Of a stretch of DNA of 46,542 bases, positions 1 through 46,542 are shown piece after piece. Location of the stretch: assembly GCA_016187175.1 (NCBI GenBank), contig JACPKG010000003.1, positions 1 through 46,542 on the forward strand, written 5' to 3'. The DNA comes from Candidatus Saccharimonadota bacterium. Its GTDB lineage: Bacteria; Patescibacteriota; Saccharimonadia; Saccharimonadales; UBA10212. Under the pieces are notes generated by a model, which saw nothing but the letters and a program-made list of their open reading frames with translations, did no database searches and was not told where the DNA came from. The position numbers and the translations under genes were made by a program. Each line of letters begins with the position of its first letter. Position 1 is the stretch's first letter.

Positions 1-1822
1 TTCGGTGCGACATTTTTGGTTTTGGCGCCCGAACATAAAATATTCGCCTCAGGCGAATTAAGTATTTCTAAAGAAGTCAAAGATTACATAGAACAGGCTG
101 AACGCAAATCGGAAATCGACCGTATGGAAACCGAGCGTGAGAAGACCGGTGTATTTACCGGTATTTACGCGATCAATCCGGCCAACAAAGAAAAAATTCC
201 CATTTGGGTAGCTGACTATGTTCTACTTGGCTACGGCACTGGCGCCATCATGGCCGTCCCGGCCCACGATGAGCGCGACTGGCAGTTTGCTAAAAAATTC
301 AAGTTGCCGATTGTCCATGTTTACGACCAGAAAGGCGCTGACCCCAAAAGCTGCTATCACGGCGAAGGCATAGTCAAAAACTCCGGACGCTACGATGGCA
401 TGACAACCAGCGATATGCGCGAAAAAATAGTCAAAGATCTGGCCAAAGCTGGCGTAGCTAAAGAAAAAATAAACTACAAAATTCGTGATTGGCTGATCAG
501 CCGGCAGCGTTACTGGGGCGCGCCGATTCCAATCATTCATTGTCCCAAAGATGGCACAGTGCCTGTGCCGGAAGAAAATTTACCAGTGGTTTTGCCAAAG
601 ATGAAAAGCTATGAGCCAAGTGGTGAGGGCCACGGCCCATTGGCTAATGTGCCGGAATTCGTCAATGTCAAATGTCCAAAATGTGGTGGTAAGGCTAAGC
701 GTGAAACAGACACCATGGATGGTTTTGCCTGTAGCAGTTGGTATTTCCTGCGGTTTGCCGACCCCCACAACAGCCAATATGCTTTTGACGAGCAAAAAAC
801 AAAATTCTGGCTGCCGGTTGATGATTATATTGGTGGTGCCGAACATGCCGTCATGCACCTGCTGTACGCCCGTTTTTGGACAAAAGTTATGTTTGACGAG
901 GGCTTGATCAGCTTTGACGAGCCTTTCACTACGCTGCACAACCAGGGCATGATTCTAGCTCCTGATGGGCGCAAAATGAGTAAAAGCTGGAACAATACCA
1001 TTGAGCCGGACAACTTAATCGAACAAGGCTATGGCGCAGATTCTATCCGTCTGTTGGAGCTCTTTATCGGCCCATGGGACCAAACTGCTAACTGGAGTGT
1101 TGAAGGATTGGGTGGCACTTTCCGTTTTCTACAGCGAGTTTGGACGTTGGTTCAAGAATACTCAGATGCAACAAGCAACAAGCAACAAGTAACAAGCTCT
1201 GGGCATAATGCCGAGCTGGAAACACAGATTATGCGGACGGTTCATAAAGCGATCAAGAAAGTCAGTAAAGACTTGAACGAACTTGGCTTTAACACAGCCA
1301 TTGCCGCCCTAATGGAATGTGTCAACCAGCTTTACAAAGTTAAAAACCAAAATGGAATGTGTCAACCAGCTTTACAAAGTTAAAAACCAAGGCCCTTCGA
1401 CCCATTCGATAAGTACTCAGGGTCGCCCTGAGTCTATCGAACGAGCGACTAGGCTCAGGGGGAGCAACTTTTCACTGGTTCAGGAGGCCTGGAGAGACGG
1501 GCTGATTGCTTTAACACAACTGCTGGCACCTTTCGCGCCACACATAGCTGAAGAAATTTGGGCCGAACTGGGACAAGCTGGTTCGGTACATATTAGCCAA
1601 TGGCCAGCTTGGAATGAAGAATTAGTCCAAGAAGACCTAATAACAATTGTTGTTCAGGTCAACGGTAAAGTCCGTGCGGAACTACTACTACCATCTGATA
1701 CAACTGAAAAAGAGGCTGTTGAAGCTGCCAAAAATGACGACAAAGTCGCAAAAAATATAGCCGGTAAAAAGATAAAAAAAGCAATCTACGTCCCCGGCCG
1801 GCTGGTTAGCCTGGTGGTTTAA
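1..1822 (+). CDS. leuS: Leucyl-tRNA synthetase, 5' partial; frame broken by a 40-bp tandem duplication at 1311-1390
   Basis: Motifs YGTGAIMAVPAHDERD, DWLISRQRYWG, KMSKS and C-terminal VQVNGK; ORFs 16-1383 and 1319-1822 join into one frame if one 40-bp copy is removed. Confidence 0.97.
1168..1195 (+). repeat. 7-bp tandem array inside leuS
   Basis: gcaacaa x3 + gtaacaa, encoding ATSNKQQVTS. Confidence 0.9.
1311..1390 (+). repeat. Perfect 40-bp tandem duplication
   Basis: aatggaatgtgtcaaccagctttacaaagttaaaaaccaa at 1311-1350 and 1351-1390. Confidence 0.98.
1393..1460 (+). repeat. Nested REP-like palindromic insertion, in-frame in leuS
   Basis: Outer cccttcg|actaggctcaggg interrupted by a 48-nt inner unit containing ttcgataagtactcaggg-tcg-ccctgagtctatcgaa. 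Confidence 0.8.
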
Positions 1823-2084
1823 GTTGGCTGCCAAAGGCCAGTTTTAAAACACAAACCCCAGTGGCCGCACCGACCGCTAAGCGTTTGACTTTTCTGCTCA
1901 ATCGAGATTCCTGGCGCCTTTTTAGAGATCTTGCCGCAGATTGCTCGAAAAGATCCTCTATTGTCCATTGTTCAACTAGATCTTTTACGGAGTAGTCCGG
2001 TAGGCCTGCAACTATAGCCGCAAATTCTCTGTTAATTTCTTCCGGGCCGTGCCAATCTTCTTCGGCGTCGCGAAAACTATGCAT
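1806..2084 (-). CDS. Hypothetical protein, 92 aa
   Basis: ATG ORF filling the gap after leuS; acidic N-terminus and hydrophobic C-terminus; no recognised family. Confidence 0.5.
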   Translation of the reverse strand: MHSFRDAEEDWHGPEEINREFAAIVAGLPDYSVKDLVEQWTIEDLFEQSAARSLKRRQESRLSRKVKRLAVGAATGVCVLKLAFGSQLKPPG

Positions 2085-2990: not shown

Positions 2991-3488
2991 TTGAAAAGGC
3001 CAAAGCCAATACAGAGTTTCCGCAGACTTATCAGACGGCCAGCCATTAACGAAGTGGTACGCGAACCAACGGCTGGCGGTATAATTTTTCGCCATGCCCC
3101 TAAGCAGCCCAAAGACATAGAAATTTTGCTGATCCAGGACAGTAAGAACCGTTGGACAATCCCTAAAGGGCATATAGAGGAGGGCGAAACGGCGGCTCAG
3201 GCAGCCGAGCGGGAAATTCGCGAGGAAACGGGGTTGACTCGGATGCAAGTTCTAGACTGGCTGGGTAAGATTAACTTCCGCTATCGCCGCGGTAGCAGCT
3301 TAGTATTGATGACGACTGAAATATATTTAGTCAGAGCTAACGGTAGGACCGGCGAGGTCAAGCCCGAAAAATGGATGACCAGTCTGGCCTGGCTACCCGC
3401 CAAGGACGCGCTTGATAAAATTGAATATGAAGACATAGGTAAGCTAATATTGCTAGGACTGAAGAAGATAAGAAAGCAGCAATTATGA
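2991..3488 (+). CDS. NUDIX hydrolase
   Basis: Nudix box GHIEEGETAAQAAEREIREETG. Confidence 0.93.
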   Translation: MKRPKPIQSFRRLIRRPAINEVVREPTAGGIIFRHAPKQPKDIEILLIQDSKNRWTIPKGHIEEGETAAQAAEREIREETGLTRMQVLDWLGKINFRYRRGSSLVLMTTEIYLVRANGRTGEVKPEKWMTSLAWLPAKDALDKIEYEDIGKLILLGLKKIRKQQL

Positions 3489-3547
3489 AACATGAAACAA
3501 GAAACATGAAACAAGAATTCGTATTTCGTGTTTCACAATTCGTAGTT
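3485..3547. repeat. Nine 7-bp units in register, purine-rich half followed by pyrimidine-rich half
   Basis: atgaaac atgaaac aagaaac atgaaac aagaatt cgtattt cgtgttt cacaatt cgtagtt, centred on GAATTC. Confidence 0.85.
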
Positions 3548-3567
3548 CAACGACCGGAGGTTATTTG

Positions 3568-4266
3568 ATGGACATGTCTAAATATCAAGCTTTGGCCGAT
3601 AAGCATTTTGGCGGATTTTCTAATTTAGAATTACTGATTACGGCTTTTACTCACCGTTCCTATCTGAACGAGCATAAAGCTACGGCCAAAGAGCACAACG
3701 AACGGCTAGAGTTTTTGGGTGACGCAGTGCTAGAGCTAGTTGTTACCGAGCATTTGTACAACAACTTTAAGGAACCAGAAGGGGTTTTGACTAACTGGCG
3801 CAGCGCTTTAGTACGGACCGAAAGTATCAGTGGGGCGGCTGAACGTGAAGAGTTTGAGCCGCTGCTTAGATTATCCCGTGGCGAGAAACGCGGATCCGAA
3901 CGCGCCCGTCAGCAAATACTGGCGAATTGTTATGAGGCTGTTGTGGGCGCCCTATACCTTGACAAAGGCTATAAAGCTGCCAAGGAGTTCATTAACCGTA
4001 CACTGCTGCCGGCCCTAGAAGAAATTCTGCAAAACGGTGCGTGGTTAGACCCCAAGTCTCAGCTTCAAGAAAGAGTTCAGAGTCGCGAGGGCTTCACGCC
4101 TGTATATAAGGTTATGCAGGAAGAAGGTCCGGACCATAATAAAATATTTATGGTTGGCGTTTATGTCAATGATGAGCTAAAAGGTAAGGGCGAAGGACCA
4201 AGTAAGCAAACAGCCCAAGTGACTGCCGCCACCGCTGCCCTGCGACAATACCTGAAAGAGGATTGA
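3568..4266 (+). CDS. rnc: Ribonuclease III
   Basis: NERLEFLGDAVL signature; dsRBD DPKSQLQE...GPDH; SD ggagg upstream. Confidence 0.98.
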   Translation: MDMSKYQALADKHFGGFSNLELLITAFTHRSYLNEHKATAKEHNERLEFLGDAVLELVVTEHLYNNFKEPEGVLTNWRSALVRTESISGAAEREEFEPLLRLSRGEKRGSERARQQILANCYEAVVGALYLDKGYKAAKEFINRTLLPALEEILQNGAWLDPKSQLQERVQSREGFTPVYKVMQEEGPDHNKIFMVGVYVNDELKGKGEGPSKQTAQVTAATAALRQYLKED

Positions 4267-4791: not shown

Positions 4792-5358
4792 GTGGCGGTA
4801 AGTATAGACCAGCAATTCATAGAATATATCATTAAGTCCATAGTCGGTCATCCAGAGGACATCAAGATCGAGCGCCGGATTGACGAAAAAGGCGTTTTGT
4901 TAGAGCTATCAGTTAACCCCGAAGATCTTGGCCGGGTTATTGGCAAACGCGGCGCGACAGCACAGAGCATCCGTACACTTCTGCGGGCGCTGGGTACCAA
5001 GAACGACGCCCGTTACAACCTCAAAATCATAGATACAGGACCACCGCCAGAGAGCAGAGGACCCGCCTTCGCCGAGGCTTCCCCCTTCGCTGATGCTTCG
5101 GAGGACAAGTCGGTGGACGGGTCGGAGGGCAGGACAGAAGACAGAGGAAAAGTTCCAGCTGTGGCCACAGCTAGTGACGATGATGTAGTAGCAGATACCC
5201 CAAGTGACGATACAGCAGTGCCTGACGATTCGGCCAGAGCCGATGATGTAGATATGACTGAGGACGAAGAGTTGCCCAAGACACCCAAAGAAGATCATAG
5301 CGACGTAGTCAGCCGCACGCGCAAAGAATTAGCCGACCTCGACGACCTAGACGTCTAG
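4792..5358 (+). CDS. khpA: KH-domain RNA-binding protein (KhpA/YlqC family) with long acidic tail
   Basis: DLGRVIGKRGATAQSIR (GxxG KH loop); position after rpsP. Confidence 0.9.
   Translation: MAVSIDQQFIEYIIKSIVGHPEDIKIERRIDEKGVLLELSVNPEDLGRVIGKRGATAQSIRTLLRALGTKNDARYNLKIIDTGPPPESRGPAFAEASPFADASEDKSVDGSEGRTEDRGKVPAVATASDDDVVADTPSDDTAVPDDSARADDVDMTEDEELPKTPKEDHSDVVSRTRKELADLDDLDV
5049..5147 (+). repeat. Two nested 30-nt REP-like units inside a 7-bp array, in-frame in khpA
   Basis: Outer cccgccttcgccgaggct|tcggtggacggg (5062-5079 + 5110-5121) split by inner tcccccttcgctgatgcttcggaggacaag (5080-5109). Confidence 0.85.
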
Positions 5359-5611: not shown

Positions 5612-6286
5612 ATGAAGATTCAAGTTATTACGCTGTTTCCGGAGATGTTTGAGGGTGTCTTAAATACCAGTATGTTGCGGAAGGCACAAGATAAAAAACT
5701 GGTCGAGTACAAGCTAATCAACTTACGGAACTTTGGTATTGGACCACGTAAGCAGGTTGATGACACACCTTATGGCGGCGGCGATGGCATGGTGTTGCGT
5801 GTTGAACCGCTGCTAGCAGCGGTTCAACACGCAATGTCGTCCATTCGACAGGCTCAGGACAGGTCAGTCACTAATCGTCAGTCACTAGTCGTTTTGATGA
5901 CGCCGAGGGGAAAGAAGTTCACTCAGGCCAAGGCTAGAGAATTATCAAGAATTGATAATCTGATTTTAGTTTGCGGACGCTACGAGGGCTATGACGAACG
6001 CGTCACTAGTTTTATTGATGAGCAGATTTCAATCGGTGACTACGTGCTGACTGGCGGCGAATTGCCGGCTATGGTGGTAATTGATGCAGTCACCCGTTTG
6101 ATCCCCGGTGTACTGGGTGGTACCACCAGCGCCGTGCGGGAAAGTTTCGCTCAAGCAGGCGTCGTTGAATACCCGCAGTACACTCGTCCGGAAAAATTCC
6201 GTGGTCTGAAAGTTCCCAAAGTGCTACTGTCTGGTCACCATGCCGAAGTTGAAAAGTGGCGCACTGGTCAGCAGAGGAAAAAGTGA
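5612..6286 (+). CDS. trmD: tRNA (guanine-N1)-methyltransferase
   Basis: VDDTPYGGGDGMV, CGRYEG.DER, SIGDYVLTGGE, YPQYTRP. Confidence 0.98.
   Translation: MKIQVITLFPEMFEGVLNTSMLRKAQDKKLVEYKLINLRNFGIGPRKQVDDTPYGGGDGMVLRVEPLLAAVQHAMSSIRQAQDRSVTNRQSLVVLMTPRGKKFTQAKARELSRIDNLILVCGRYEGYDERVTSFIDEQISIGDYVLTGGELPAMVVIDAVTRLIPGVLGGTTSAVRESFAQAGVVEYPQYTRPEKFRGLKVPKVLLSGHHAEVEKWRTGQQRKK
5833..5891 (+). repeat. 24-nt REP-like unit inserted in a 7-bp array, in-frame in trmD
   Basis: tccattcgacaggctcaggacagg (5840-5863); removal restores aatgtcg tcagtca ctaatcg tcagtca ctagtcg. Confidence 0.85.
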
Positions 6287-8387: not shown

Positions 8388-8461
8388 TCCGGGATCGTCT
8401 AACGGTAGGACGCTAGACTCTGGATCTGGTAATCTTGGTTCGAGCCCAAGTCCCGGAGCCA
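8388..8461 (+). tRNA. tRNA-Gln, anticodon CTG
   Basis: Acceptor tccggga/tcccgga, anticodon arm ctaga-ctCTGga-tctgg, T loop ggttcgagcc, encoded CCA. Confidence 0.96.
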
Positions 8462-8583: not shown

Positions 8584-8747
8584 GCTCTTGCAGTTTCATA
8601 AAATAGTACTATAGTTATGCTTATTCATTTATGTAATAAATATAGGCCAAAACACACAGTATGAGTAATTCGTTCATAGAACAATTCCCTCAATTTAGAA
8701 CTCCGGGCCAATTAAGAAAAGATGAAATTATATTAGGAGGAGTTGCT

Positions 8748-9971
8748 ATGACAAACGGTTTTGATAAAAAACAAGGAGATCAACCAGTACTCAATGCTAG
8801 TCCTGGAATCCTCAAAGAACCTGGCGGTAGTTCGGTAAACAACCCGCCTGCCGCAGATGAGTTGGAACCTGTTTCTTCTGAATCAGGTGGAGTAATCGTT
8901 GGAAAACCTGAAAAAATAGAAGGCACAGAAGGATTTTATAATCCAGCAGCTTGGCGGTACGTTGACAAGTACGGTGTCCCTAAGATTTGTTTATTGGGTC
9001 GTGATGTGAAAATGCCCGACCAAGCTTCTGCTACCGACGATAAACCTGTTGAATTTACTGCCGATGGAGATCCGATTGTCGGGGGCGGGCCAGATGTTGG
9101 TCCTATAGTACTTAAGGTTATAGGCCCAGATGGTAGGATTATACCCGAACTCACAAAAATAGTTTTTGAACCCAAAGTCGGGGGACCCTCGTTTGAAGAT
9201 TTCAGAGCATTATCGTTAGACGATGGCACGCTTATTTTTGGACTGACTTGGGTAGAACCCGACGGTACGCCTTTCCCTGCAATGCTGGTTACAACAACCG
9301 AAGAATTGATGGAACCAGGAACATCTGTAGAACCTAAAATTGTCAAAGATCTAGGTAGTGGCGACCAGACAACTCCCCTAGATGAAGAAGGTGTCAAAAT
9401 ACCAGGAAAAAACCTCACGCCGATTGATAGACATTCTTCAGATACAGATACGTATTCTTTCATGTTTAGGTCGCAAGGCAAAGAAAATCGTCATCGACTC
9501 CAAGTATTTTATGTTAAGGAAGGCGTAGTGACACATCGGTATGATATAAAGCTTCCTACGGATAAGGAGTGGGGTGAGTGGCAAATGGGCACGGGCGCGC
9601 CTCCAGAATGGACTGATAAGACCCGCCGAGAGGCTATTACTCTGATCCATGGGATCACAATAGTAAACGGGGAGTACGTATATACGTTCGCTTCTGCCAG
9701 GATGTATAGGGATCAAGATGACGTGCTATCGTTAGACAATATAGGCAAACCACTACTGACTTCAGCTTTGTTTGACGATGTAGTTCAACGTCATCGAGGG
9801 AGAAACGCATTTTATATTGATGGGTGGGTACCTCATCGTGACGAGGATGGCAACCTTGTTCTTCTGGAGGTGTTCGGCAGTCCAGGCGATTCACGCACGG
9901 ATAGAGTTTTCTTGGATCCGCGTGAAATAATCAGGCAATGGAAGAGGCCTGAATTGGCCGTGGCCGCTTAA
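8748..9971 (+). CDS. Divergent GH130-like beta-propeller glycosidase/phosphorylase
   Basis: Ordered motifs YNPAA, EDFR, KN, MGTGAPP, IHG match the GH130 pattern FNP, EDPR, KN, IG.GAPP, YHG; SD aggagg favours ATG 8748 over 8661. Confidence 0.6.
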   Translation: MTNGFDKKQGDQPVLNASPGILKEPGGSSVNNPPAADELEPVSSESGGVIVGKPEKIEGTEGFYNPAAWRYVDKYGVPKICLLGRDVKMPDQASATDDKPVEFTADGDPIVGGGPDVGPIVLKVIGPDGRIIPELTKIVFEPKVGGPSFEDFRALSLDDGTLIFGLTWVEPDGTPFPAMLVTTTEELMEPGTSVEPKIVKDLGSGDQTTPLDEEGVKIPGKNLTPIDRHSSDTDTYSFMFRSQGKENRHRLQVFYVKEGVVTHRYDIKLPTDKEWGEWQMGTGAPPEWTDKTRREAITLIHGITIVNGEYVYTFASARMYRDQDDVLSLDNIGKPLLTSALFDDVVQRHRGRNAFYIDGWVPHRDEDGNLVLLEVFGSPGDSRTDRVFLDPREIIRQWKRPELAVAA

Positions 9972-10036
9972 CTTAAAGTAAGAACAGAGTTTTTGCTGTC
10001 GAATTGTCCAGACCGGTAGGCTCAGCCAATAATTTC

Positions 10037-10065
10037 TTGACAGGCTTTTGATCATATGCCACCAT
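10037..10065 (+). promoter_or_regulatory. Promoter of the ilv leader
   Basis: TTGACA-17 bp-CACCAT with upstream TG; predicted +1 near ATG 10073. Confidence 0.6.
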
Positions 10066-10072
10066 GCTAGGC

Positions 10073-10120
10073 ATGCGCAACCAACTAATTAGTGAGGTAA
10101 TCATTATTAACCCAGCCTAG
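10073..10120 (+). CDS. Branched-chain amino acid leader peptide MRNQLISEVIIINPA
   Basis: Six Ile/Val/Leu codons, including a VIII run, directly upstream of alternative hairpins and ilvB. Confidence 0.8.
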   Translation: MRNQLISEVIIINPA

Positions 10121-10179
10121 CGGGTAGTTTTTTGCATATTACAAACGAAAAATAACTCCCGCAAAATGCGGGAGTTTTT
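10120..10179 (+). terminator. Attenuator: antiterminator plus intrinsic terminator
   Basis: Terminator aactcccgca-aaa-tgcgggagtt-ttt (10154-10179); gcgggtagtt (10120-10129) can pair with its 5' arm. Confidence 0.85.
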
Positions 10180-10240
10180 ATATCAAGCAGGCCAAATCAT
10201 TTGCTTAAATATGAAAATAATGAGATAATAAAGAAAAGTA

Positions 10241-12040
10241 ATGAGACGTAATTATACCGGCGCTGAAGCCACGATAAAAACCCTTGAAGAACTAGGGGTA
10301 ACGTACATATTTGGCCTTTCGGGCGGAGCCATCCTACCGTTTACTGATGCTGTTCACAGACTTGCAACAGCTGGTGAGAGCGAAATTAATTTGGTTTATA
10401 CGCGTCACGAGCAAGGCGCGATTCATATGGCCGAAGGTTACACCAGTGCCAGCGGTAAACCTGGGGTGGTGTTGGTAACTAGCGGCCCGGGTGCCGGTAA
10501 TATAATATCCGGCTTGCTGGACGCTAAGCTAGACAGACGGCCAGTGCTGGCAATCACCGGCCAAGTCCCCACCTATATGATCAATAAAGAGGGTTTTCAA
10601 GAGGCTCCTGTCATGGCTATATCTAGACCGCTGGTGAAGTGGAATCACCAACCCAAGGATTCCAATAAACTGCCAAGAGCTGTAGTTAAAGCGTTACGTA
10701 TCGCAACCAGCGGTCGCCCGGGTCCAGTTTTACTTGATGTACCGAAAAATATTGGCGAAGGAGATTTTACGGGAAGTCTAGAGCTAGCAATTGAGCGACC
10801 CGGCAAACTTGCTAAAATTAATCCTTACAAAGCCGTAATCAGGGCTAGGGATGCTATTAGAGAATATAGGGCTAACAAGGCTACCGGGGCTATTGTCAAG
10901 GCCTGGCGGACGGCCGAGAGGCCAGTTATATTAGCCGGTCATGGTGTATTAATTTCGGGAGGTACTGAAGAGTTACTAAAATTGGCAGAACAAGAAGATA
11001 CACCTGTTACTACAACTTTATTGGGTAAAGGCGCTTTTCCGGAAACTCATAGACTTAGCCTGGGAATGTTAGGCATGCACGGCACAGCTTATGCTAACAA
11101 AGCCATTTTAGGAGCTGACTTTGTACTTAATCTCGGCTCGCGCTTTGATGATCGGATCGTTGGTGATCCCAAGAAGTTTTGCAAAGGCGCCTTTATAGCC
11201 CACGTTGATATTGATCGCACACAATTTGGTAAGATGATTAAGCCAAACAAGAAAGTTGCCACTGACGGTCGTATATTTATCAAAACAATCCTTGGTGAAT
11301 TGGCCTTAAATGGCAAAGAGAAACGGTCTGACCGCTCTAAATGGAATGAAAAAATCGAAGAATTTAAGGTGCAATACCCTCTGAGCTATGAAACCAGCCA
11401 AGGACTGACAGCCCAAGAAGTGATTGACGCCGTTTATAAAGTCAGTGGTGGCGATGCCATCGTAACGGCCGACGTCGGCCAGCACCAAATGTGGGCTGCC
11501 CAGTTTTATAAAACCAATAGACCCAACCACTGGATAACTTCTGGGGGTGCCGGCACTATGGGTTTTGGTTTGCCGGCGGCTATCGGGGCTCAATTTGCGA
11601 AACCTCATGAACAAGTTATTGCTTTTGTCGGCGACGGCGGTTTTCAAATGACGTCGTATGAACTAACTACTGCCCGTAAACATAATCTGCCAATCAAAGT
11701 AATTATCTTAGACAATCAATATTTAGGCATGGTCCGTCAATGGCAAGAAGTTTTTTACGATGACCGCGAAAGTGCAGTGAACCTGGAAGATAACCCTGAT
11801 TTTGTAATGTTGGCTGAGAGCCATGGCGCAGTCGCAATAAGAGTTGAGGATCGTGAAGATCTGCAGGCAGCGCTGGAAAAAGCTTTCTCAGTTAATGATC
11901 GACCGGTAGTTGTGCACGCTTGTGTTAATAAAACCGATAATGTTTACCCTTTTATTCCTTCAGGAAGACCATACACCGATATGCTCTTAGGGCCACCGCC
12001 ACCAAATGAAAAATTGCCAACTCCGACGGGAAGCACATAG
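10241..12040 (+). CDS. ilvB: Acetolactate synthase large subunit, biosynthetic type
   Basis: RHEQGA, TSGPGA, GRPGPV, LGMLGMHG, RFDDR, DVGQHQMW, TPP motif GDGGFQM...N, LGMVRQWQ. Confidence 0.95.
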   Translation: MRRNYTGAEATIKTLEELGVTYIFGLSGGAILPFTDAVHRLATAGESEINLVYTRHEQGAIHMAEGYTSASGKPGVVLVTSGPGAGNIISGLLDAKLDRRPVLAITGQVPTYMINKEGFQEAPVMAISRPLVKWNHQPKDSNKLPRAVVKALRIATSGRPGPVLLDVPKNIGEGDFTGSLELAIERPGKLAKINPYKAVIRARDAIREYRANKATGAIVKAWRTAERPVILAGHGVLISGGTEELLKLAEQEDTPVTTTLLGKGAFPETHRLSLGMLGMHGTAYANKAILGADFVLNLGSRFDDRIVGDPKKFCKGAFIAHVDIDRTQFGKMIKPNKKVATDGRIFIKTILGELALNGKEKRSDRSKWNEKIEEFKVQYPLSYETSQGLTAQEVIDAVYKVSGGDAIVTADVGQHQMWAAQFYKTNRPNHWITSGGAGTMGFGLPAAIGAQFAKPHEQVIAFVGDGGFQMTSYELTTARKHNLPIKVIILDNQYLGMVRQWQEVFYDDRESAVNLEDNPDFVMLAESHGAVAIRVEDREDLQAALEKAFSVNDRPVVVHACVNKTDNVYPFIPSGRPYTDMLLGPPPPNEKLPTPTGST

Positions 12041-12132
12041 CAAATACAGCTACTAATGAAGCCCGCTCATCTTTCATATAAGGCTGGCGTTGACTGCTTG
12101 ACTGAGCGCCTCTAAAATAAACAATTGTTAAT

Positions 12133-12849
12133 ATGACTTAAAATAAACATGATCTTTATGAGGACCATGGCCAAAGCATAGGCCCAAAACTAAACAAGCT
12201 GCGAGCGGCGGTACTGGGAGCCAATAACGGCATAGTTTCTATTTCTGGTCTGGTGGTTGGCGTCGCCGGAGCTACCGATTCCAAAGTGGTTATTTTGACC
12301 GCTGGTGTAGCTGGTCTGATCGCTGGTGGCATATCAATGGCGGCTGGTGAGTACGTGTCGGTTAGCAGCCAACGTGACACGGAGCGGGCTCTGCTGCACC
12401 AAGAAAAATTTGAGCTTAAAAACTACCCCAAAGGTGAGTTTCATGAGCTGGTAAAACTCTACCAAGATAAAGGCTTAACCCAAGCCACTGCCAACAAGGT
12501 AGCTAGCGAACTAACAGACCGCGATGTCTTTATGGCTCATGCTGATGCCGAGCATAGCATAGACCCGGATGAGCTGGTTAACCCCTGTCAGGCGGCCATC
12601 GCCTCAACCGCGTCGTTTTTGGCCGGAGCCGCCATTCCGCTAATTGCCATTACTGGGCCGCCGGCCAATATGCGCATACCGATAGCCTTTGTGTCAGCTG
12701 TTATTGCACTTATACTCACTGGTACGCTGAGCGCTAAAGTTGGCAAAGCTCCGGTCTTGCCAGCCATCGCCAGAGTTGTATCTGGAGGCTTGATAGCTAT
12801 GGTTATCACTTTTAGTATCGGCAGTTTGCTTGGCGCCAGCAATATATAG
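12133..12849 (+). pseudogene. VIT1/CCC1 transporter, probable pseudogene
   Basis: ATG 12133 is in frame but codon 3 is TAA; conserved LRAAVLGANDG reads GANNG and lies upstream of the track ORF; SMAAGEYVSVSSQRD intact. Confidence 0.75.
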
Positions 12850-13218
12850 ATTGACCTCATAGAGACGTGCTGTCTTCTTCACACAACAATTTCGTCAGCC
12901 AGTTATTATTCCTTTCCAAAAGATATGCTCTAGACCCATAGGTTCCGCCAATTTACGCCGGCTCATACCAAAGCAAAACATTATCTGATTTAAACCCCCT
13001 TATTCCTGGAAGCTTAAGATTACCTGACTCTCAAAACATAGCTTACTAGACAATATTTTTGCCGTTTACAAGGAGGCTCATTGTAAACTTGTAAACAATG
13101 GATGAGTCACGCCTTAGGCGATGGGGTTTGATGGAGGTTTTTAGAGTCCGATGGGATTAACATGATAGTATTTAAGTTAAATTTTATAATATAAGCTAGT
13201 AATTACGGAGAGAAGTAA

Positions 13219-13509
13219 ATGAGTCAACCAATGGAAGTACGGCAAGAGCTGAGAGATCAAGTAGCAGAGCTTGCTGGAAGCTATCCAGAAAACGCCGAGG
13301 CTACGGTGGTTCTCAGGGGTTTATACAGGCTTTATTTTGATAGAAAATCTGACGCAAATCCTAGAGAGAAGGGATTTTTGTTGTCTGCAGGTTATAACTT
13401 TTCTAGGTCTGCCGGTTTTCCTTTCCAACAAAATAATGAAATTTTTCGAGAAGAAGCCGCTAGACTCTACACGCCTCCACAGCAAGCTGGCGTCACACCC
13501 CAAGCATAA
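13219..13509 (+). CDS. Hypothetical protein, 96 aa
   Basis: ATG with ggag SD and upstream TATAAT; no recognised family. Confidence 0.6.
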   Translation: MSQPMEVRQELRDQVAELAGSYPENAEATVVLRGLYRLYFDRKSDANPREKGFLLSAGYNFSRSAGFPFQQNNEIFREEAARLYTPPQQAGVTPQA

Positions 13510-13592
13510 AAGTGCTCATACTTCATGCTGGCTGATGAAGACGCGTTAGCTATTGAGATTGAAGCCGCTGATAAATGAGGATAGCTAAATAC

Positions 13593-14486: not shown

Positions 14487-14583
14487 ATTTGCTGGACTGT
14501 AAATCAGTATAAAGCCGGTGCTATAATTGGCTAGCTCAGCAAGTTTATAGGGGTGAAGTGCTTAAGCTAAACGGAATGTAGAT

Positions 14584-18117: not shown

Positions 18118-18210
18118 ATACGTAAGAAAGAGAAATTTTATACAGCTCACTTTTTACACTTATGCTAGACTTTTTTTGCCCCAAGGTGGTTGGGTTTGAA
18201 GAGGATCGAA

Positions 18211-18678: not shown

Positions 18679-18856
18679 CCGACTTTTTGGACTTAGATTG
18701 GTGATCTATTGCCGCTGAAGAATGAGATAGGGGAACCTTGGTATCAGGCCGGGCTGCCTGAATGTTATCAATTTTGTCTTGGACTTTTTTATGATACTTG
18801 TGCAGACGAACTAGTTGGCCGTCAGGTGGCGTGGGGCGTCGTAAATAATATTGCAT
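18632..18856 (-). CDS. Possible small basic hypothetical protein
   Basis: ATG ORF of 74 aa overlapping the convergent gene by 47 nt; no family. Confidence 0.3.
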   Translation of the reverse strand: MQYYLRRPTPPDGQLVRLHKYHKKVQDKIDNIQAARPDTKVPLSHSSAAIDHQSKSKKSAKWPGQRFGQDRSTT

Positions 18857-19692: not shown

Positions 19693-19709
19693 ATGCGAAG
19701 TTAAATCAA

Positions 19710-21134
<1,425 letters not shown>

Positions 21135-22016: not shown

Positions 22017-22035
22017 CTAGGAGCTCCTTTCAGTC

Positions 22036-32688: not shown

Positions 32689-33387
32689 ATGAGAATAACC
32701 CTGCTGGCGTTTTACGTTTCGCTCCTTTTTTTACTTAGTGCGGCCGTACCAGTTATAGCTGAAAATGAAAATGGTAGTTCGGGCTCGTCGAGTTCTAGTG
32801 CTAGTGAAACCCAAAAGGAAACTGCCAAGAAAGAGGCAGAGGCTAAACGTGAAGCGGCTAAGAAAGATTTTGAAGCCAAACGCGAGGCCGCCAAAAAAGA
32901 CTACGAAGCCAAACGCGAGGCCGCCAAACAAGAAGCCGAAGGTAAACGTGAAGCTGCCAAAAATAAACTGGAAGAACAGAAAAAGAAACTTAAGGATGAC
33001 AAACTGAAGATTTGCCAAGAGCGCGAAGACAAGATAAATGACTCCATGGCACGCATTGGCGAGAGAGGCCAGAATAAAATCGACTTGTTTAGCGCGATTG
33101 CCGACCGCACCAAATCCTTTTATGTATCTAAGAGTAAAGTCCTGGCTAACTATGATGCCTTAGTGGCCGCCGTAGAGGCCAAAAAGGCAGCAGCCCAGAC
33201 AGCTGTTGATACCGTAATATCCACCAGCGTGACATTTGATTGCGAAGCCGATGACCCTAAAGGTACAGCCAGTGAGTTTAAGACTAATGTCAAAGCCATG
33301 CATGACGCCCTGAAGCAGTACCGGACCGCCGTTAAAAACTTAATCGTTGGTGTCAAATCCGTCCAGAGCACCGAGGGGAGTCAGTAA
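32689..33387 (+). CDS. Secreted coiled-coil protein with 11-aa repeats
   Basis: Signal peptide, Ser linker, KKxxEAKREAA x4, two Cys. Confidence 0.85.
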   Translation: MRITLLAFYVSLLFLLSAAVPVIAENENGSSGSSSSSASETQKETAKKEAEAKREAAKKDFEAKREAAKKDYEAKREAAKQEAEGKREAAKNKLEEQKKKLKDDKLKICQEREDKINDSMARIGERGQNKIDLFSAIADRTKSFYVSKSKVLANYDALVAAVEAKKAAAQTAVDTVISTSVTFDCEADDPKGTASEFKTNVKAMHDALKQYRTAVKNLIVGVKSVQSTEGSQ

Positions 33388-39560: not shown

Positions 39561-39562
39561 TT

Positions 39563-39851
39563 TCAATCTTTATCATCGCCCACAACTTTAACCTCGTAGC
39601 TTTCGACTAATGGATTCACTAATACTGCGGTCTCTGTGCATATTACTCCGACCAATACGGCAAGCTTCTGTAGGATCTATATCCTGCGGTAAGACCAACT
39701 CATAGAGGCGCCCTATTCGTACATTGTTTACATTAAAACCCAAAGGTGATTTCAGCACTAGTTCTACTGCTTCGCCTTCTGGATCTAGCATACCTTCTTT
39801 TGGTAGCACCAGAACCTCAATTCTTAAGCCGCTAAAAGGTGCTTCACTCAT
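39563..39851 (-). pseudogene. purS: PurS-like protein with a frameshift near 39675
   Basis: PKEGMLDPEGEAV and VRIGR in one frame; C-terminal LVNPLVESYEV in the +1 frame, ending at TGA 39565-39563. Confidence 0.75.
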
Positions 39852-39914
39852 TAATCTAATCTAAAATTATGAGACTGAAGCTGCCTGCGGTCAATTATCG
39901 GTCGTAAAGAGCTA

Positions 39915-39972
39915 ACTGGTCTGTGCTTACAAGGATTGCATACAAGGATTATCCTTGTAAGCACAGACCAGT
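39915..39972. repeat. Left REP palindrome of the RAYT
   Basis: Perfect 22-bp arms actggtctgtgcttacaaggat/atccttgtaagcacagaccagt with an extra tacaaggat inside. Confidence 0.93.
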
Positions 39973-39989
39973 GTGCGTATATTGGAAGT

Positions 39990-40637
39990 ATGCCTAGTAA
40001 AAACACGGTTAAAGAATTTGACGTTGATCAAATGTGGCATGTCTATAATCGTGGAGTCGAAAAACGGATGATTTTTATGGACGACCTTGACTACAGAGTT
40101 CTCCTAAGTTATCTGAAAATAGCTCTTGGACCTGAAATACCTAAAGAAACTGTTAATTTAGATTTGGCTCAAGTATTTAACTTGCGCAGAGCCCATCTTC
40201 ATTCCGAAGTCGAGCTGGTAGCTTACTGTTTAATGCCCAATCATTTTCACCTGTTGCTTTATCAGTATTCGCCAGACGGGATTTCTAAATTAATGCGCTC
40301 TATTAGCACCGGTTACGTTATGTATTTTAATAAACGCTACAAACGCGAAGGCCGGCTTTTTCAAGGAACCTATAAAGCTTCACACATAAGTAGTGACCAA
40401 TACTGGCTCCATGCTAGTCGATACATACATCTAAATCCACTTGACGCCAAAGAAGACTATAAGATCTATCCGTATAGTAGTTACAAGTATTTTGCGGGTA
40501 AACAAAGACCTAAATGGCTCCATCCAGAATGGATCACCAAAAGCTTTATTGGAACGGAGGAGTATAAGACCTTTGTGGCAGATTACCAATCCTATAAATA
40601 TGAACTCGATAGCCTCAAAAAACAACTTGCTGCTTAG
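39990..40637 (+). CDS. REP-associated tyrosine transposase (RAYT, Y1 HUH family)
   Basis: HVYNRG, YCLMPNHFHLL (HUH), GRLFQG.Y, RYIHLNP (catalytic Tyr), YPYSS. Confidence 0.93.
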   Translation: MPSKNTVKEFDVDQMWHVYNRGVEKRMIFMDDLDYRVLLSYLKIALGPEIPKETVNLDLAQVFNLRRAHLHSEVELVAYCLMPNHFHLLLYQYSPDGISKLMRSISTGYVMYFNKRYKREGRLFQGTYKASHISSDQYWLHASRYIHLNPLDAKEDYKIYPYSSYKYFAGKQRPKWLHPEWITKSFIGTEEYKTFVADYQSYKYELDSLKKQLAA

Positions 40638-40639
40638 CT

Positions 40640-40670
40640 CTTGCCTACAAGGATTATCCTTGTAAGCAAG
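40640..40670. repeat. Right REP palindrome of the RAYT
   Basis: cttgcctacaaggat-t-atccttgtaagcaag; core tacaaggattatccttgta identical to the left copy. Confidence 0.93.
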
Positions 40671-40681
40671 GATGTTAATTA

Positions 40682-42031: not shown

Positions 42032-42059
42032 AGGTTATAGGTTACAGGTTGTAGGTTAC
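42032..42059. repeat. 7-bp array in a divergent promoter region
   Basis: aggttat aggttac aggttgt aggttac; reverse complement of the 19621-19692 unit. Confidence 0.85.
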
Positions 42060-42086
42060 AGTAGTCGCATTTATACTAATGAGAGC

Positions 42087-43115
42087 ATGGAGTATAAAAA
42101 TCCGGATGTAGTTAAAGTGGTGAAACAGCTTAAGGCGAAGTTCGATAAGCTGGAGGATAAGCGGGCTATTTTACGCTCGCCAGAACTAGGCGCACTTTTT
42201 GAGCGAATAAAAACTTTGCCAACCGGCAAAGCCCGCGCCGACTTCGGCAAAGAAGTAAACAAACTGAAACAAGAGCTCGAAGCTCTTGTTTCAGCAGCAA
42301 TAAGCAATAAGCAAAAAGCAAAAAGCACTCCGATTGACGTGACGGCGCCTTTTGATATTAACGTCCCGGCAGAGCTGCGGCCAAAGTTACTCACTGCCGA
42401 CAACGGTAGCCGGCATCCACTAATGACTGAACTAGAAAATATTTTGGGTATTTTTGCCCGTATGGGTTTTGTGGCTATTGAATCGCGTGAACTGGATGAT
42501 GATTATCATATGTTCGGCTCGCTGAACTTTCCCAAAGACCATCCAGCCCGCGATGAATACGATACATTTGTAACTGATGAAGACCTAGTGGCACCGGCCC
42601 ATACTTCGATAATGCAAAACCGAGTCTTTAAGAGTATGGAAATCCCCATCCGGGTAGTAATTCCAGGCCGATGTTTCCGTAATGAAGACGTTGATGCACG
42701 GCATGACCATACTTTTTATCAGCTCGAAGGCGTGTATGTAGACAGAGGTATACATGCCGGTCATCTGATTGCTACGCTCAAGACTTTTTTTAAGGAATAC
42801 TTCCAAAAAGACGTAGGGGTTAAGACGCAGCCATTTTACTTTCCGTTTACCGAACCGAGTTTTGAATTCGCTGCTAGCTGTCCATTTTGTGACCAAAAAG
42901 GCTGCAATATATGTTCATATTCAGGTTGGATTGAGCTATTAGGCTGCGGATTAATCCACCCAAATGTGCTGCGCGAAGGCGGCATCGACCCAACACAGTA
43001 CACCGGCTTCGCGTGGGGCGGCGGGATTGAACGCTTAGTAATGATCAAATACGGCATTGAGGATATCCGTTACTTTCACTCCGGCAATCTAAAATTTCTG
43101 AGACAATTTTCATGA
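42087..43115 (+). CDS. pheS: Phenylalanyl-tRNA synthetase alpha
   Basis: HPARD..DTF, HTS, GRCFRNE, FYQLEG, YFPFTEPS, GFAWGGGIER. Confidence 0.98.
   Translation: MEYKNPDVVKVVKQLKAKFDKLEDKRAILRSPELGALFERIKTLPTGKARADFGKEVNKLKQELEALVSAAISNKQKAKSTPIDVTAPFDINVPAELRPKLLTADNGSRHPLMTELENILGIFARMGFVAIESRELDDDYHMFGSLNFPKDHPARDEYDTFVTDEDLVAPAHTSIMQNRVFKSMEIPIRVVIPGRCFRNEDVDARHDHTFYQLEGVYVDRGIHAGHLIATLKTFFKEYFQKDVGVKTQPFYFPFTEPSFEFAASCPFCDQKGCNICSYSGWIELLGCGLIHPNVLREGGIDPTQYTGFAWGGGIERLVMIKYGIEDIRYFHSGNLKFLRQFS
42294..42328 (+). repeat. 7-bp array inside pheS
   Basis: gcagcaa taagcaa taagcaa aaagcaa aaagcac. Confidence 0.85.
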
Positions 43116-44043: not shown

Positions 44044-46542
44044 ATGAAAGTTAGCGTTAATTGGATTAGAAAAATTATCGAGCAGGACCATGTTTCGGCT
44101 GATCCGATGCCGGATGGTATTGACGCGTTGGTCGAGAAAATTGGCGCCCAGTTAGGCGCAGTCGAAGAGGTTATTGATGTTGGTAAAAAATACCAAGGCA
44201 TTGTCGTCGCCAAAGTTATCTCCTGCGAAAAGCATCCAAACGCCGACAAGCTAAGTGTATGCCTAATTGATGATGCCAAAGCAGTTAAAGGCGTTAGGCG
44301 TGATGCTAAAGGTTTGGTGCAGGTTGTTTGTGGCGCGCCAAATGTCGCTGCCGACCAGCTGGTGGCCTGGATCCCGCCCGGCGTTGCCGTGCCTTCAACC
44401 GTTGATAAAGAACCTTTTGTCCTGGAAGCGCGAAATATTAGAGGTGTTATTAGCAGCGGTATGATTGCCAGCCTCAAAGAGCTGGCCTTGGGAGAAGATC
44501 ACACAGGGATTTTAGTTATTGACCAACCCACCAAAGCAGGTCAGCCATTCGCCGAAGTTTACAAATTGGACGACTTCATTATCGATATCGAAAACAAGAT
44601 GTTCACTCACCGTCCGGATTTATTTGGGCAATTAGGTATTGTTCGTGAACTGGCGGGAATCCAACAGCATGTTTTCAAAAGCCCGGACTGGTACAAAGAG
44701 AATCCGCAACTGCCTAAACCAAATGGCGTAGCCACTCATAAGTTAAGTGTCAAAAACGACACGCCACAGTTGGTGTCCAGATTTACAGTCGTGGTTTTGA
44801 AAGATGTTAAAGTCGGTTCCAGTCCGCTTTGGCTTAAGGTGCGTTTAAGTAATGTAGGAGTAAAATCTGTCAACAACATTGTCGACATAACAAACTTTCT
44901 GATGCTAGAAACGGCCCAGCCGCTGCATGCTTATGATTACGACAAACTGCTAATGCAGCAGAGCCAAGAGCCAAGAGCCAAGAGCCAAGAAGTTACCATC
45001 GGAGTAAGGCTGGCCGAGGCCGGCGAAGAACTGACAGTTTTGGGTGGTAAGAGATTAAAGCTAAACAAAAACGATATTGTCATTACCTCGGCCGACAAGC
45101 CGATTGGTTTAGGCGGCATAATGGGCGGAGCAGATACGGAAGTCAATGAGGCTACGACCAATATTGCTTTGGAAGTTGGTAATTTCGATATGAATACCAT
45201 TCGCACGTCAGCCATGCGCCATGGCCTGTTTACCGAAGCCGCCACTAGGTTCACCAAGAACCAGAGCTCGCGCCAGAACCTGGCGGTAGCTGTGAAAGCC
45301 ATTGATGAAATAAAACGTTTGGCCGGCGGCCGCCAAGCCAGCCCGATCATCGACGATAGACACTTTCATGTCAAAGCCGTTACCGTAAACGTGATACCCC
45401 AATTCATCAATGAACGTTTAGGCCTTGACCTCAGCACTGCCCGAATTAAGAAATTGCTGGAAAATGTCGAGTTTAAAGTTGAGACCAGTGGCGAAACATT
45501 AAAGATCGAAGCGCCTTTTTGGCGGACTGACATAGAAATTCCCGAAGACATTGTTGAAGAAGTTGGCCGGCTGTACGGCTACGAGCATCTGCCACTGGCA
45601 TTACCCGGCAAAGATCTCACTCCGGCAGCCAAAAATGAAACACTGGATTTCAAGCAACGCGCCCGTGATATACTGTCGGCCGCTGGCGCCAACGAGGCTT
45701 TAACATACAGTTTTATCCATAGTTCACTGATAGAAAAAGCCGGCCAAGACGTTAAAGATGCCTACCATATTCGCAACGCACTCAGCCCAGACTTGCAATA
45801 TTACCGGTTGAGTTTGGCACCCAGCTTGCTAGAGAAAGTCCATCCTAACATCAAAGAAGGCTTTGAGGACCTTTCATTATTCGAAATAGGCCGTGCTCAT
45901 GTAAGAGGTGTAGTGGATGAAGAAAAGCTGCCTATGGAGCTGGAGAGGCTTTGTCTGGTTGTTGCCAAAAACAGGTCACGAAAAGAGGCCGGCGCACCAT
46001 ATTTTGCGGCTAAAAAACAACTGGAAAACCTACTGCACAGTGTGGGTATCCATTCAATGGTCTACGAGCCGCTGAGCAAAGACCTGCCTATGCAATGGCA
46101 AGCGGCAGCTAGTGCCTACGAACCCAAACGAACTGCGGTAATTTATCCTAATTATCATAAAAAAGAAGTTATTGGTTTAATTGGCGAGCCTAGCCAAGCC
46201 CTAAAACAGTCACTGAAATTACCGACTTTTATCGCCGGAGCTGAGTTAGACATTGAAGTTTTGATTAAAAACGCTAAGCCACTCGATTATTATCCGCTTA
46301 ATAAATTCCCAGCCATCGAGCAGGACATTTGTCTGCGTAGCAGTAACAATCTGTCTTATGGGGAGCTGACAAATTTTGTATTAGGTACATTAGGCAAAAT
46401 AGCCGACGAACATGGCTTCTTTCATTGGCTCAGCCCAGTCGACATTTACCAAAAGCCTAACGACAAAGCCCACAAACAAACAACCTGGCACATTGGTCTG
46501 TCGCACCCGAAAAAAACCCTAACTACTGCAGAGGCGAATAAA
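44044..46542 (+). CDS. pheT: Phenylalanyl-tRNA synthetase beta, 3' partial (absent from ORF track)
   Basis: HPNADKL, VCGAPN, HRPD, NNIVDITN, QPLHAYD, RTDIEIPEDIVEEVGRLYGY; frame runs off the window. Confidence 0.97.
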   Translation, partial: MKVSVNWIRKIIEQDHVSADPMPDGIDALVEKIGAQLGAVEEVIDVGKKYQGIVVAKVISCEKHPNADKLSVCLIDDAKAVKGVRRDAKGLVQVVCGAPNVAADQLVAWIPPGVAVPSTVDKEPFVLEARNIRGVISSGMIASLKELALGEDHTGILVIDQPTKAGQPFAEVYKLDDFIIDIENKMFTHRPDLFGQLGIVRELAGIQQHVFKSPDWYKENPQLPKPNGVATHKLSVKNDTPQLVSRFTVVVLKDVKVGSSPLWLKVRLSNVGVKSVNNIVDITNFLMLETAQPLHAYDYDKLLMQQSQEPRAKSQEVTIGVRLAEAGEELTVLGGKRLKLNKNDIVITSADKPIGLGGIMGGADTEVNEATTNIALEVGNFDMNTIRTSAMRHGLFTEAATRFTKNQSSRQNLAVAVKAIDEIKRLAGGRQASPIIDDRHFHVKAVTVNVIPQFINERLGLDLSTARIKKLLENVEFKVETSGETLKIEAPFWRTDIEIPEDIVEEVGRLYGYEHLPLALPGKDLTPAAKNETLDFKQRARDILSAAGANEALTYSFIHSSLIEKAGQDVKDAYHIRNALSPDLQYYRLSLAPSLLEKVHPNIKEGFEDLSLFEIGRAHVRGVVDEEKLPMELERLCLVVAKNRSRKEAGAPYFAAKKQLENLLHSVGIHSMVYEPLSKDLPMQWQAAASAYEPKRTAVIYPNYHKKEVIGLIGEPSQALKQSLKLPTFIAGAELDIEVLIKNAKPLDYYPLNKFPAIEQDICLRSSNNLSYGELTNFVLGTLGKIADEHGFFHWLSPVDIYQKPNDKAHKQTTWHIGLSHPKKTLTTAEANK
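44960..44990 (+). repeat. 7-bp array inside pheT
   Basis: agagcca x4 + aga, encoding SQEPRAKSQE. Confidence 0.9.

Follow-up and report, generated by a model that had tools for sequence, protein, structure and literature searches.

Heptanucleotide arrays inside genes and at gene junctions of a groundwater Saccharibacteria genome

An excess of tandem repeats with seven-nucleotide units, built from many different units and found in many bacteria, was described by Mrazek et al. in 2007 and explained by ordinary slippage of a polymerase whose footprint is ~7 nt (as described in PMC4692102 and PMC4679880). The excess has been noted since then without a tested cause. Here we analyze short period-7 (heptamer) arrays in a complete 46.5-kb contig, JACPKG010000003.1 (the window), of a groundwater member of the Saccharibacteria, order Saccharimonadales, in the candidate phyla radiation (CPR). 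Its genome (G000) comprises 663,662 bp on 22 contigs, and the window is collinear with two genomes of the same genus, G002 and G001. A preliminary description, made from the letters of the window, had reported pervasive period-7 arrays and proposed a dedicated generating mechanism. New here, and absent from that description, is that array-bearing spacers appear, judged by their sequence, to behave as read-through bridges between cistrons, in the form of small open reading frames (mini-ORFs). We consider it most likely, with about half of our confidence, that the arrays are made in place by slipped-strand duplication, that modules bearing them are copied, and that they are retained where reading continues. 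The lineage is an unusually clean system, with very small genomes, a trait that is on or off within one genus, and orthologous sites with concerted evolution.

In what the two papers above relate of it, the heptanucleotide class of long simple sequence repeats of Mrazek et al. resembles the present arrays in several respects: 7 nt is the top class among longer units, units are many, carriers are scattered over phyla, intergenic DNA is enriched and slippage is proposed. The present arrays differ in their ~0.66-Mb CPR genome, a ceiling of ~3-6 units, the third of them that form inverted pairs, the stop-free bridging ORFs at cistron junctions, and presence or absence within one genus. TAACTGA direct repeats, known from marine Beggiatoaceae, cyanobacteria and Bacteroidetes (MacGregor 2015, PMC4679880), likewise occur in 2-6 copies per set. 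They are intergenic, immediately 5' of start codons, and are found within ribosomal protein (r-protein) operons as well as ahead of fusA and pheS; their phylogenetic spread is patchy. In the available text of that paper one heptamer dominates and related ones are rare, whereas more than 100 unit classes occur here, and a regulator-binding role is proposed rather than read-through ORFs. The GGGAATC and GGGGAYT heptamers of Xanthomonas and Nostoc (Rehm 2015, PMC4692102) share the intergenic position, some inverted stem-loop pairs, and differences in length and sequence at the same gene pairs of close species; as portrayed in that source, they are G-rich and quadruplex-prone and can extend to 26 units or beyond, whereas ours are AT-rich and short. 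For the read-through aspect, the nearest analogue is the Rickettsia palindromic elements (RPEs; PMC10969869), small dispersed palindromes of a reduced genome, which tolerates them because their reading frame stays open. As far as that source describes them, RPEs form conserved families of ~150 bp inside genes, whereas the present inserts are heptamer-built, mostly unique and bridge two genes. Hairpin-forming inverted arms and a reading frame retained by the insert are traits shared with RPEs and with miniature inverted-repeat transposable elements.

In the literature searched, we found no paper joining "Saccharibacteria" with "heptanucleotide" or "heptamer"; supplements lay outside the search and may list more heptamers. 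Cyanobacterial short tandemly repeated repetitive sequences are long arrays of few genome-typical heptamers. Neither that profile nor one dominant heptamer per genome applies here: 205 arrays from 40 sources fall into 117 canonical unit classes, in agreement with the many units of the preliminary description, and no array of G000 exceeds six units. Phase-variable contingency loci, in which unit changes in or before a variable surface gene switch frame or promoter, are no match either, the array hosts being housekeeping genes and operons and all arrays being in frame.

The period-7 excess and the anatomy of the arrays

Tandem Repeats Finder (TRF) returned 29 rows for the window. Nine are at period 7 (1168, 2887, 3485, 19580, 22038, 22079, 42032, 42296 and 44960) and five at period 14, the latter at period-7 places or at 5863; periods 6, 8, 9 and 10 contributed 1, 2, 3 and 2 rows. 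Genome-wide (score >=30), period 7 was the commonest among units of 5-11 nt, with 118 rows versus 1-55 elsewhere (1, 18, 31, 55 and 29 at periods 5, 6, 8, 9 and 10); periods 14 and 21 gave 35 and 5 rows. Two detectors of our own, equally sensitive at every period, were run with order-3 Markov simulations as the null. There were 13 exact lag-p runs of at least 12 at period 7, 15 at period 14 and 3 at period 21, versus 0-3 at every other period from 2 to 30 (0-0.4 in the simulations). Scored segments came to 23 for period 7, with no more than 3 for any period that is not a multiple of 7 (simulations ~0). A further TRF-independent count, in which successive units differ by at most one mismatch, gave 57 period-7 arrays with at least three units versus one in simulated sequence (32/20/5 arrays of 3/4/5 units versus 1/0/0). 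The corresponding figures were 28/2/0 at period 6 (simulation 7/0/0), 1/1/0 at period 8 and 1/0/0 at period 9. The excess is real and peaks at 7, 14 and 21 only. Chance and base composition are ruled out as its cause by the Markov simulations, and an assembly artefact is unlikely because orthologous sites in separate genomes and on metagenome contigs also bear arrays.

The pervasiveness asserted in the preliminary description is upheld, and with sensitivity held equal, periods 5, 6, 8 and 9, which it had named as a counter-check, occur far less often than 7. TRF finds ten of the 14 arrays it listed, at period 7 or period 14. Those at 27634 and 27697 are real degenerate 7-nt arrays, the arms of one hairpin, and fall below the TRF threshold. 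The entry at 5049 has two units only, TRF reporting period 12 at 5098-5128 instead, and the one at 19621 amounts to two units and another copy of CGTAACCTG, the direct repeat that flanks a 47-nt hairpin insertion. At one metagenome locus (L168), the atpA-atpG spacer holds a period-8 array (CATTCGTC/CATTCGTT x4) in place of the period-7 arrays of others; the period-7 rule is thus not absolute.

With units counted at up to two mismatches from the consensus, 44 of the 66 G000 arrays scoring >=36 have four units, 11 have five, two have six and none has more. Units are richer in A+T than the genome (64% versus 53%) and recur above chance, with 22 identical-class pairs among these 66 arrays versus 2.2 expected. 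TTAC, TTGAT and AGCT occur in the units of 9, 6 and 9 of the 66 (3.9, 1.7 and 2.4 expected), which is only a lead because the motifs were picked post hoc. After merging, 87 arrays were scored against a crude longest-ORF gene set: 36 are intergenic, 9 lie across an ORF edge, 10 at an ORF end and 32 internally, so that 55 lie outside ORF interiors although the crude ORFs cover 90.7% of the genome. The array-rich places are the spacers of co-directional housekeeping operons (ATP synthase, r-protein, and rpoC-S12-S7-EF-G on contig 21).

For 31 of the 87 arrays a nearby inverted partner could form a hairpin (at or above the 99th percentile of a random-segment null). On folding, these hairpins are long, with helices of 4-6 bp interrupted every 7 nt. 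The lower-energy strand is the sense strand at atpA-atpG and the opposite strand at several r-protein sites, which speaks against a hairpin of the mRNA only. Mismatch rates between units at lags of 7, 14 and 21 nt were 0.143, 0.113 and 0.077, compared to 0.13, 0.125 and 0.105 in simulations of equal ascertainment. Units 21 nt apart, which share codon phase, are hence more alike than neighbors beyond the ascertainment effect, as follows from the avoidance of stops in a reading frame.

Stop-free spacers between co-directional genes

Between the NUDIX gene and rnc, the 5' arm (ATGAAAC)x4.7 at 3485-3517 (plus strand), whose first unit includes the NUDIX stop TGA (3486-3488), is followed by a degenerate inverted arm of TTCGTNT type at 3518-3550 (plus). 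The two pair with a match of 22/33 (minimum free energy, MFE, -19.1, z -3.4). The whole spacer reads as a mini-ORF of 27 codons (3485-3568, plus) that opens on the NUDIX stop (ATGA) and closes on the rnc start codon at 3568 (TGATG). Two-armed heptamer hairpins with unrelated units stand here in G000 and G002; in G001 the spacer is 12 nt.

The F-type ATP synthase operon runs on the minus strand. Its atpA-atpG spacer holds a perfect 3' arm at 22038-22065, (GAAGTAT)x4.0 on the plus strand and (ATACTTC)x4 in the sense direction (TRF score 56), and a 5' arm at 22079-22107, (CTTTCTC/CATTCTT)x3.9 on the plus strand, which in sense reads GAAGAAA GGAGAAA GAAGAAT GGAGAAA. The minus-strand fold has an MFE of -24.1 (z -4.6), compared to -16.2 for the plus strand. 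A mini-ORF of 35 codons (22017-22124, minus) starts with an ATG overlapping the atpA end and stops with a TAG abutting the atpG ATG. Hairpins are present here in G000, G002 and G003, each of a different unit. Over 61 nt, comprising the atpA end and the 5' arm, G000 is 100% identical to the metagenome locus L169, which has 70% AtpG identity and coding DNA of 57-82% identity per 100-column block around this stretch. The 3' arm is (ATACTTC)4 in G000 and of TTACTAC type in L169, and inspection by eye finds the L169 frame open to TAG-ATG despite the different 3'-arm units.

In the atpD-atpC spacer, a (TGAACAG-type)x4 array at 19578-19606 (plus; CTGTTNA x4 on the sense strand; TRF 3.9 copies) has four copies at the orthologous G003 site too and was not found in the spacers of G002, G001 and G016. 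Next to it, AGGTTAC-type units at 19620-19692 (minus) are interrupted by a GC-rich hairpin insertion of 47 nt (19637-19683) with the direct repeat CGTAACCTG (9 nt) on either side; at the orthologous site G003 has one copy, uninterrupted. No target-site duplication was seen around the arrays, the sole repeat of that kind being the one around this 47-nt insert. A similar CCCTCC..GGAGGG hairpin was found within a G002 spacer element. The mini-ORF (53 codons, 19552-19713, minus) has an ATGA overlap at either end, and its N-terminus (12 residues) resembles the mini-ORFs of AGGTTAC modules in other genomes (see below).

Downstream of zwf, the degenerate inverted arm (TTGNTCA)x5 at 27697-27731 (plus) makes one long zwf-ABC hairpin (27634-27731; MFE -26.5, z -3.9) with the array at 27634-27668 and a central palindrome at 27675-27696. 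G001 and G016 have ~30 nt without such an element, and G002 a different composite array element. Finally, AGGTTAT AGGTTAC AGGTTGT AGGTTAC AG (42032-42061, plus; detected by TRF) lies 26-55 nt 5' of the likely pheS start, where G002 has AGGTGAC AGGTGAC AGGTTAC GGGTTAC and G001 has none.

The bridging property was assessed over co-directional spacers of 45-350 nt, with the spacer alone reverse-complemented and shuffled spacers as controls. By a strict criterion, a bridging ORF was found in 10 of 25 array-bearing spacers (NUDIX-rnc being one), versus 1 of 25 after reverse complementation and 1.22 expected from shuffles. Array-free spacers passed in 18 of 184 cases versus 3 (reverse-complemented) and 5.8 (shuffled); L29 is among these 18, as are several copies of another palindromic repeat. 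The sense strand is also kept clear of stops: 36 of 41 arrays are open in at least one frame in sense versus 25 of 41 in antisense (p 0.010), and stop-containing units are kept open by variant units in 13 of 18 arrays versus 9 of 25 (p 0.031). Unit 3 of the 3485 array is AAGAAAC precisely where an in-frame TGA would occur. Likewise, polA and the pheS gene of G002 have GTCACCT instead of GTAACCT at points where, with the frame read by eye, the reading would meet a TAA. Such stop-avoiding variants explain part of the internal degeneracy that the preliminary description took as the mark of a dedicated mechanism.

Many relatives have a TAGTG, TAAATG or TGATG stop/start junction at atpA/atpG; as stop and start codons overlap or abut in relatives that have no spacer, coupled translation is the ancestral state. 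We infer that the mini-ORFs would be translated and maintain this coupling. If so, a genome of overlapping genes would gain intergenic DNA while keeping translational coupling, and essential proteins would acquire fresh peptide segments (LeuRS, PheRS, PolA, the S17 tail). Gene callers will misplace starts and overlook such mini-ORFs in CPR genomes.

Comparison between species was limited to relatives of at most 80% AtpG identity, the closest found. Among 33 spacers common to G000 and G002, automated scoring placed arrays in both genomes at 2, in G000 only at 1, in G002 only at 5 and in neither at 25 (p 0.11); with two sites scored by eye the figures become 4/1/3/25 (p 0.004). Orthologous arrays keep four units between species at 66-73% AtpG identity.

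Such constancy invites the view that the arrays are cis-acting RNA or DNA signals, either processing or stability hairpins or four tandem sites for an oligomeric factor, as in HutP with its UAG sites spaced 7 nt. At several metagenome loci (62-79% AtpG identity) (AGTAGNN)x4 stands directly 5' of the atpD ribosome-binding site, (AGGTKAC)4 upstream of pheS is common to G000 and G002, the 5' arm is kept over 61 nt, and unit number is steady at ~4. The pheS, fusA and r-protein operon positions recur for TAACTGA in the text available of PMC4679880. We nevertheless regard a signaling role as quite unlikely, given that more than 100 different units make one sequence-specific reader improbable, close relatives manage entirely without the arrays, and the strand asymmetry of the hairpins conflicts with a purely mRNA structure. 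Moreover, no array matched an Rfam family, the tRNA at 8388-8458 being the only known RNA family in the window.

Arrays inside genes

Pfam matches bear out the gene names given in the preliminary description (leuS, nusB, khpA, trmD, zwf, pheS and pheT) and add the NUDIX gene, rnc, rpsP, sodA and the ATP synthase operon. As claimed there, no frame is broken by the coding arrays; the array at 42032, upstream of the likely pheS start at 42087, lies outside the gene. Coding arrays occupy a linker (leuS), an N-terminal arm (pheS), lineage-specific insertions (trmD, pheT) and C-terminal tails past the Pfam domains (nusB, khpA, zwf).

The leuS array, (GCAACAA)x3 + GTAACAA + GC (1168-1197, plus; TRF 4.3 copies, score 53), is in frame between the catalytic and anticodon-binding domains. 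G002 has (GCAAAAA)4 in place of the (GCAACAA)3 + GTAACAA of G000, so that all units have changed alike, as in concerted evolution; G001 is 15 nt shorter at this site, and leuS of G000 has +5 aa versus G001. In pheT, a perfect in-frame (AGAGCCA)x4.4 array (44960-44990, plus; TRF score 62) forms a G000-specific insertion in the B3_4 domain (+6 aa versus G002, +12 aa versus G001). At the pheS site, G001 and G002 have a (CTGTAAC)-type array of equal length that encodes VTSNLSP(V/A)TS, conserved between both; in G000 it is replaced by the in-frame array (AGCAATA/AGCAAAA)x4.6 (AGCAAWA; 42296-42327, plus; TRF) in the N-terminal arm of PheS, an exception to lineage specificity. In view of the lineage-specific insertions in pheT and leuS, the coding arrays of the window are, apart from this site, not the ancient conserved protein sequence that the preliminary description had asked to be considered.

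The insertion in trmD, 10 aa in G000 and G002 relative to G001 in the protein alignment, contains a 14-nt unit x2.1 made of two diverged heptamers (5863-5892, plus; TRF). The Pfam domain of NusB ends at residue 138 of 157, and the Lys-rich C-terminal tail, encoded by a degenerate A-rich 7/14-nt array (2884-2926, plus; TRF periods 7 and 14), is partly kept in G002. That of Zwf ends at residue 446 of 462; its G000-specific tail, encoded by a degenerate (AGCAAAG-type)x5 array (27634-27668, plus), is missing from G002, G001 and G016 in alignments.

Two related cases lie outside the window. In polA (G000 C10:20124-22817), three heptamer arrays (21006, 21252 and 21547) stand between the 5'-nuclease and polymerase parts, with an open frame of 898 aa versus 877-881 aa in the array-poor G001, G012 and G010. 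The S17 ORF (G000 C21:53594-53977, L328:3195-3578) has 127 aa and a Pfam domain ending at residue 73; its C-terminal extension, which an AGCTGAA/GGCTTTG array hairpin encodes and whose end overlaps the L14 start, is an array spacer fused to a ribosomal protein. In leuS, a perfect 40-bp tandem duplication (1311-1390; TRF 2.0 copies, 100%) shifts the frame, so that the gene reads as two ORFs (1-1383 and 1319-1822, the latter with the anticodon-binding domain); with one copy fewer there is one frame. It could reflect an error of assembly, a mixed population or a true disruption of an essential gene.

Arrays inserted into housekeeping proteins would also be expected if they were debris of neutral polymerase slippage with its published ~7-nt footprint, lacking mobility, translation and function and tolerated outside domains. 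The published hypothesis spans many bacteria, and the variety of units speaks for it as well. So does the reduced repair of the group as a whole, MutS (MutS_V) being found in 1 and RecJ_OB in 0 of 31 genomes of relatives; array-poor genomes, however, lack both equally, which leaves the patchiness unexplained. Neutral debris would account neither for bridging ORFs at ~8 times the shuffle expectation nor for stop avoidance confined to the sense strand, perfect 61-nt conservation amid ~70% coding identity, 57-nt identical copies at two loci, or an AGGTTAC module common to different families of the order. We deem it unlikely.

Distribution, copying and origin

Array density varies widely over the order. 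Period-7 rows per 100 kb (score >=36) amount to 31 in G002, 27 in G017, 17 each in G005 and G003, 9.9 in G000, 7.5 in G007, 7.0 in G014, 4.7 in G008 and 0.7 in G001. None occurs in the sampled DNA of G004, G006, G009-G013, G016, G018, G020-G024, G026, G027 and G030; the phenotype was scored from 2.4-140 kb per genome, so that weak carriers are possibly misclassed. The trait is patchy among Saccharimonadales and differs even within one genus. At 80 metagenome loci around atpG (352 kb), TRF gave 40 rows at period 7 and one each at 6, 8, 9 and 10, with arrays at 22 of the loci; other Saccharibacteria-type records have a period-7 row at only 4 of 38 loci.

This sharp on/off pattern, with G002, G000 and G001 so different within a genus, and the ten-fold peak at exactly 7 are what one would expect of a dedicated system, i.e. 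an enzyme or element that writes 7-nt repeats in array-bearing lineages only, as the preliminary description suggested. The IS200-type Y1 transposase (Y1_Tnp), found in 13 of 31 genomes, is the only profiled family to show an association, being present in 9 of 12 array-bearing versus 4 of 19 array-poor ones (p 0.0075, uncorrected for kinship); G000 has five matches, and G002, the array-richest genome (89% complete), none. The 5'-nuclease of PolA (30 of 31) and DinB/IMS (28 of 31) occur in nearly all genomes, RVT_1 (9 of 31) was found in neither G000 nor G002, and the large subunit of exonuclease VII, XseA (23 of 31), is present in 11 of 12 array-bearing versus 12 of 19 other genomes (p 0.11). 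None of eight candidate families over the 31 genomes tracks the trait cleanly; the co-occurring gene family that the preliminary description proposed to look for did not emerge among them. Nor is a dedicated mechanism needed, a heptanucleotide excess with many units having already been described and attributed to ordinary slippage; we rate it as very unlikely.

Some arrays appear to have been copied. The 3485 hairpin has a second copy, 100% identical over 57 nt, at G000 C21:46204-46260. A module of ~125 nt with (AGGTTAY)4 and conserved ends stands at S3-L16 and S14-S8 in G272, at L24-L5 in G014 and in another operon in G212. It has its start on the upstream stop, followed by a short conserved leader, (AGGTTAY)4, a loop and a degenerate inverted arm; it closes with GCGAC..AAGGGAGC, and its stop lies on the start of the following gene. 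As dispersed copies there are thus one 57-nt identical pair and the AGGTTAC module in three genomes; most arrays are unique and differ in their flanks. Of 401 genomes of the order, 12 have AGGTNAC-unit arrays, with several in each, while the reversed-pattern control occurs in three genomes, once each.

The module encodes related peptides of 38-41 residues (M[IF]R.T.HQVTGYRLQV...KAT.GS) in genomes of different families. This likeness would suit genuine small proteins with a function of their own; it follows, though, from the conservation of the DNA module and from the ribosome-binding site close to where it ends. Other spacers give unrelated peptides of low complexity, a homologue search with a 41-aa mini-ORF against predicted proteins of similar size found nothing, and functional small proteins are accordingly a far-fetched explanation.

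In another reading, heptamer-quartet hairpins would be a distinct class of selfish insertion modules adapted to streamlined CPR genomes, carrying their own start, a stop-free body and, at the far end, a ribosome-binding site and stop. Insertion at overlapping stop/start junctions of essential operons would leave translational coupling intact. A 7-mer array that contains no stop can be read through in any of the three frames. Diversification would follow by 7-nt slippage, along with spread within and between Saccharimonadales lineages. We hold this to be possible, although improbable.

Our preferred account is in-place slippage with copying and retention. Tandem duplication by strand slippage, 7 nt at a time and also 14 or 21 nt, confined to some lineages of the order, would make and homogenize arrays in place; we infer slippage as the generator, in agreement with the concerted change of units, the overtones at 14 and 21 nt and the occurrence of perfect arrays. 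Hairpin modules bearing arrays would spread by copying between loci, as the copies above show in part. Arrays stand where reading is uninterrupted, presumably since others do not survive. Within genes, these are linkers, tails and loops, where the net length change would be a multiple of three and in-frame stops would be mutated away. At co-directional junctions, the entire insert would be a stop-free mini-ORF with its start on the upstream stop and its stop on or abutting the downstream start, so that ribosomes could continue and the coupling of formerly overlapping operons would be kept. Fixed size, cross-species conservation and copied modules need selection and copying besides slippage.

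Several observations weigh against this account. A ten-fold peak at exactly 7 relative to 6 and 8 is not obvious from smooth slippage kinetics, and the constant unit number and 61-nt identity look like sequence selection rather than free slippage. The bridging test was failed by 15 of the 25 array spacers, including zwf-ABC of the window. The stabler strand of the hairpin is often other than the mRNA strand. No predicted protein of 22-72 aa proved related to the 41-aa mini-ORF. Lastly, arrays of equal unit were considered as copies of one mobile element and this was rejected, their flanks being unrelated between G000 loci.

Other repeats and neighboring genes were noted along the way. A palindromic repeat of ~80 nt (AGGTCCGACCT ... 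AGGTCGGACCT) has at least 14 copies in the genome (among them G000 C6:9749-9826, C13:32024-32101 and C21:65297-65374) and none in the window. Inverted heptamer arrays flank some of these copies, and several are bridging ORFs with the common peptide RSDLVKSKEILGKIT.FYLSFYKVGPL. An IS200-type Y1 transposase ORF (39936-40637, within 39561-40681) is flanked by ACAAGGAT..ATCCTTGT hairpins and has a 13-nt repeat at 39924-39950; the region is missing from the collinear sites of G002 and G001. The arrays do not correspond to repetitive extragenic palindromes (REP) and their associated transposases (RAYT, REPIN), as the ACAAGGAT..ATCCTTGT hairpins beside the Y1 gene, present 5-6 times, are not heptamer arrays, and G002 bears arrays with no Y1_Tnp match. 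The tRNA is followed by a block of ~10 kb (8661-18856) encoding a thiamine pyrophosphate (TPP) enzyme, VIT1, aspartate kinase, homoserine dehydrogenase and aspartate-semialdehyde dehydrogenase; as it has no counterpart at the collinear G002 and G001 sites, it looks like a tRNA-adjacent island. The ORF at 32689-33387, with no Pfam family, contains a 33-bp repeat (32845-32963; 3.6 copies, 79% matches) that is an ordinary in-frame protein repeat of 11 residues, unrelated to the heptamers.

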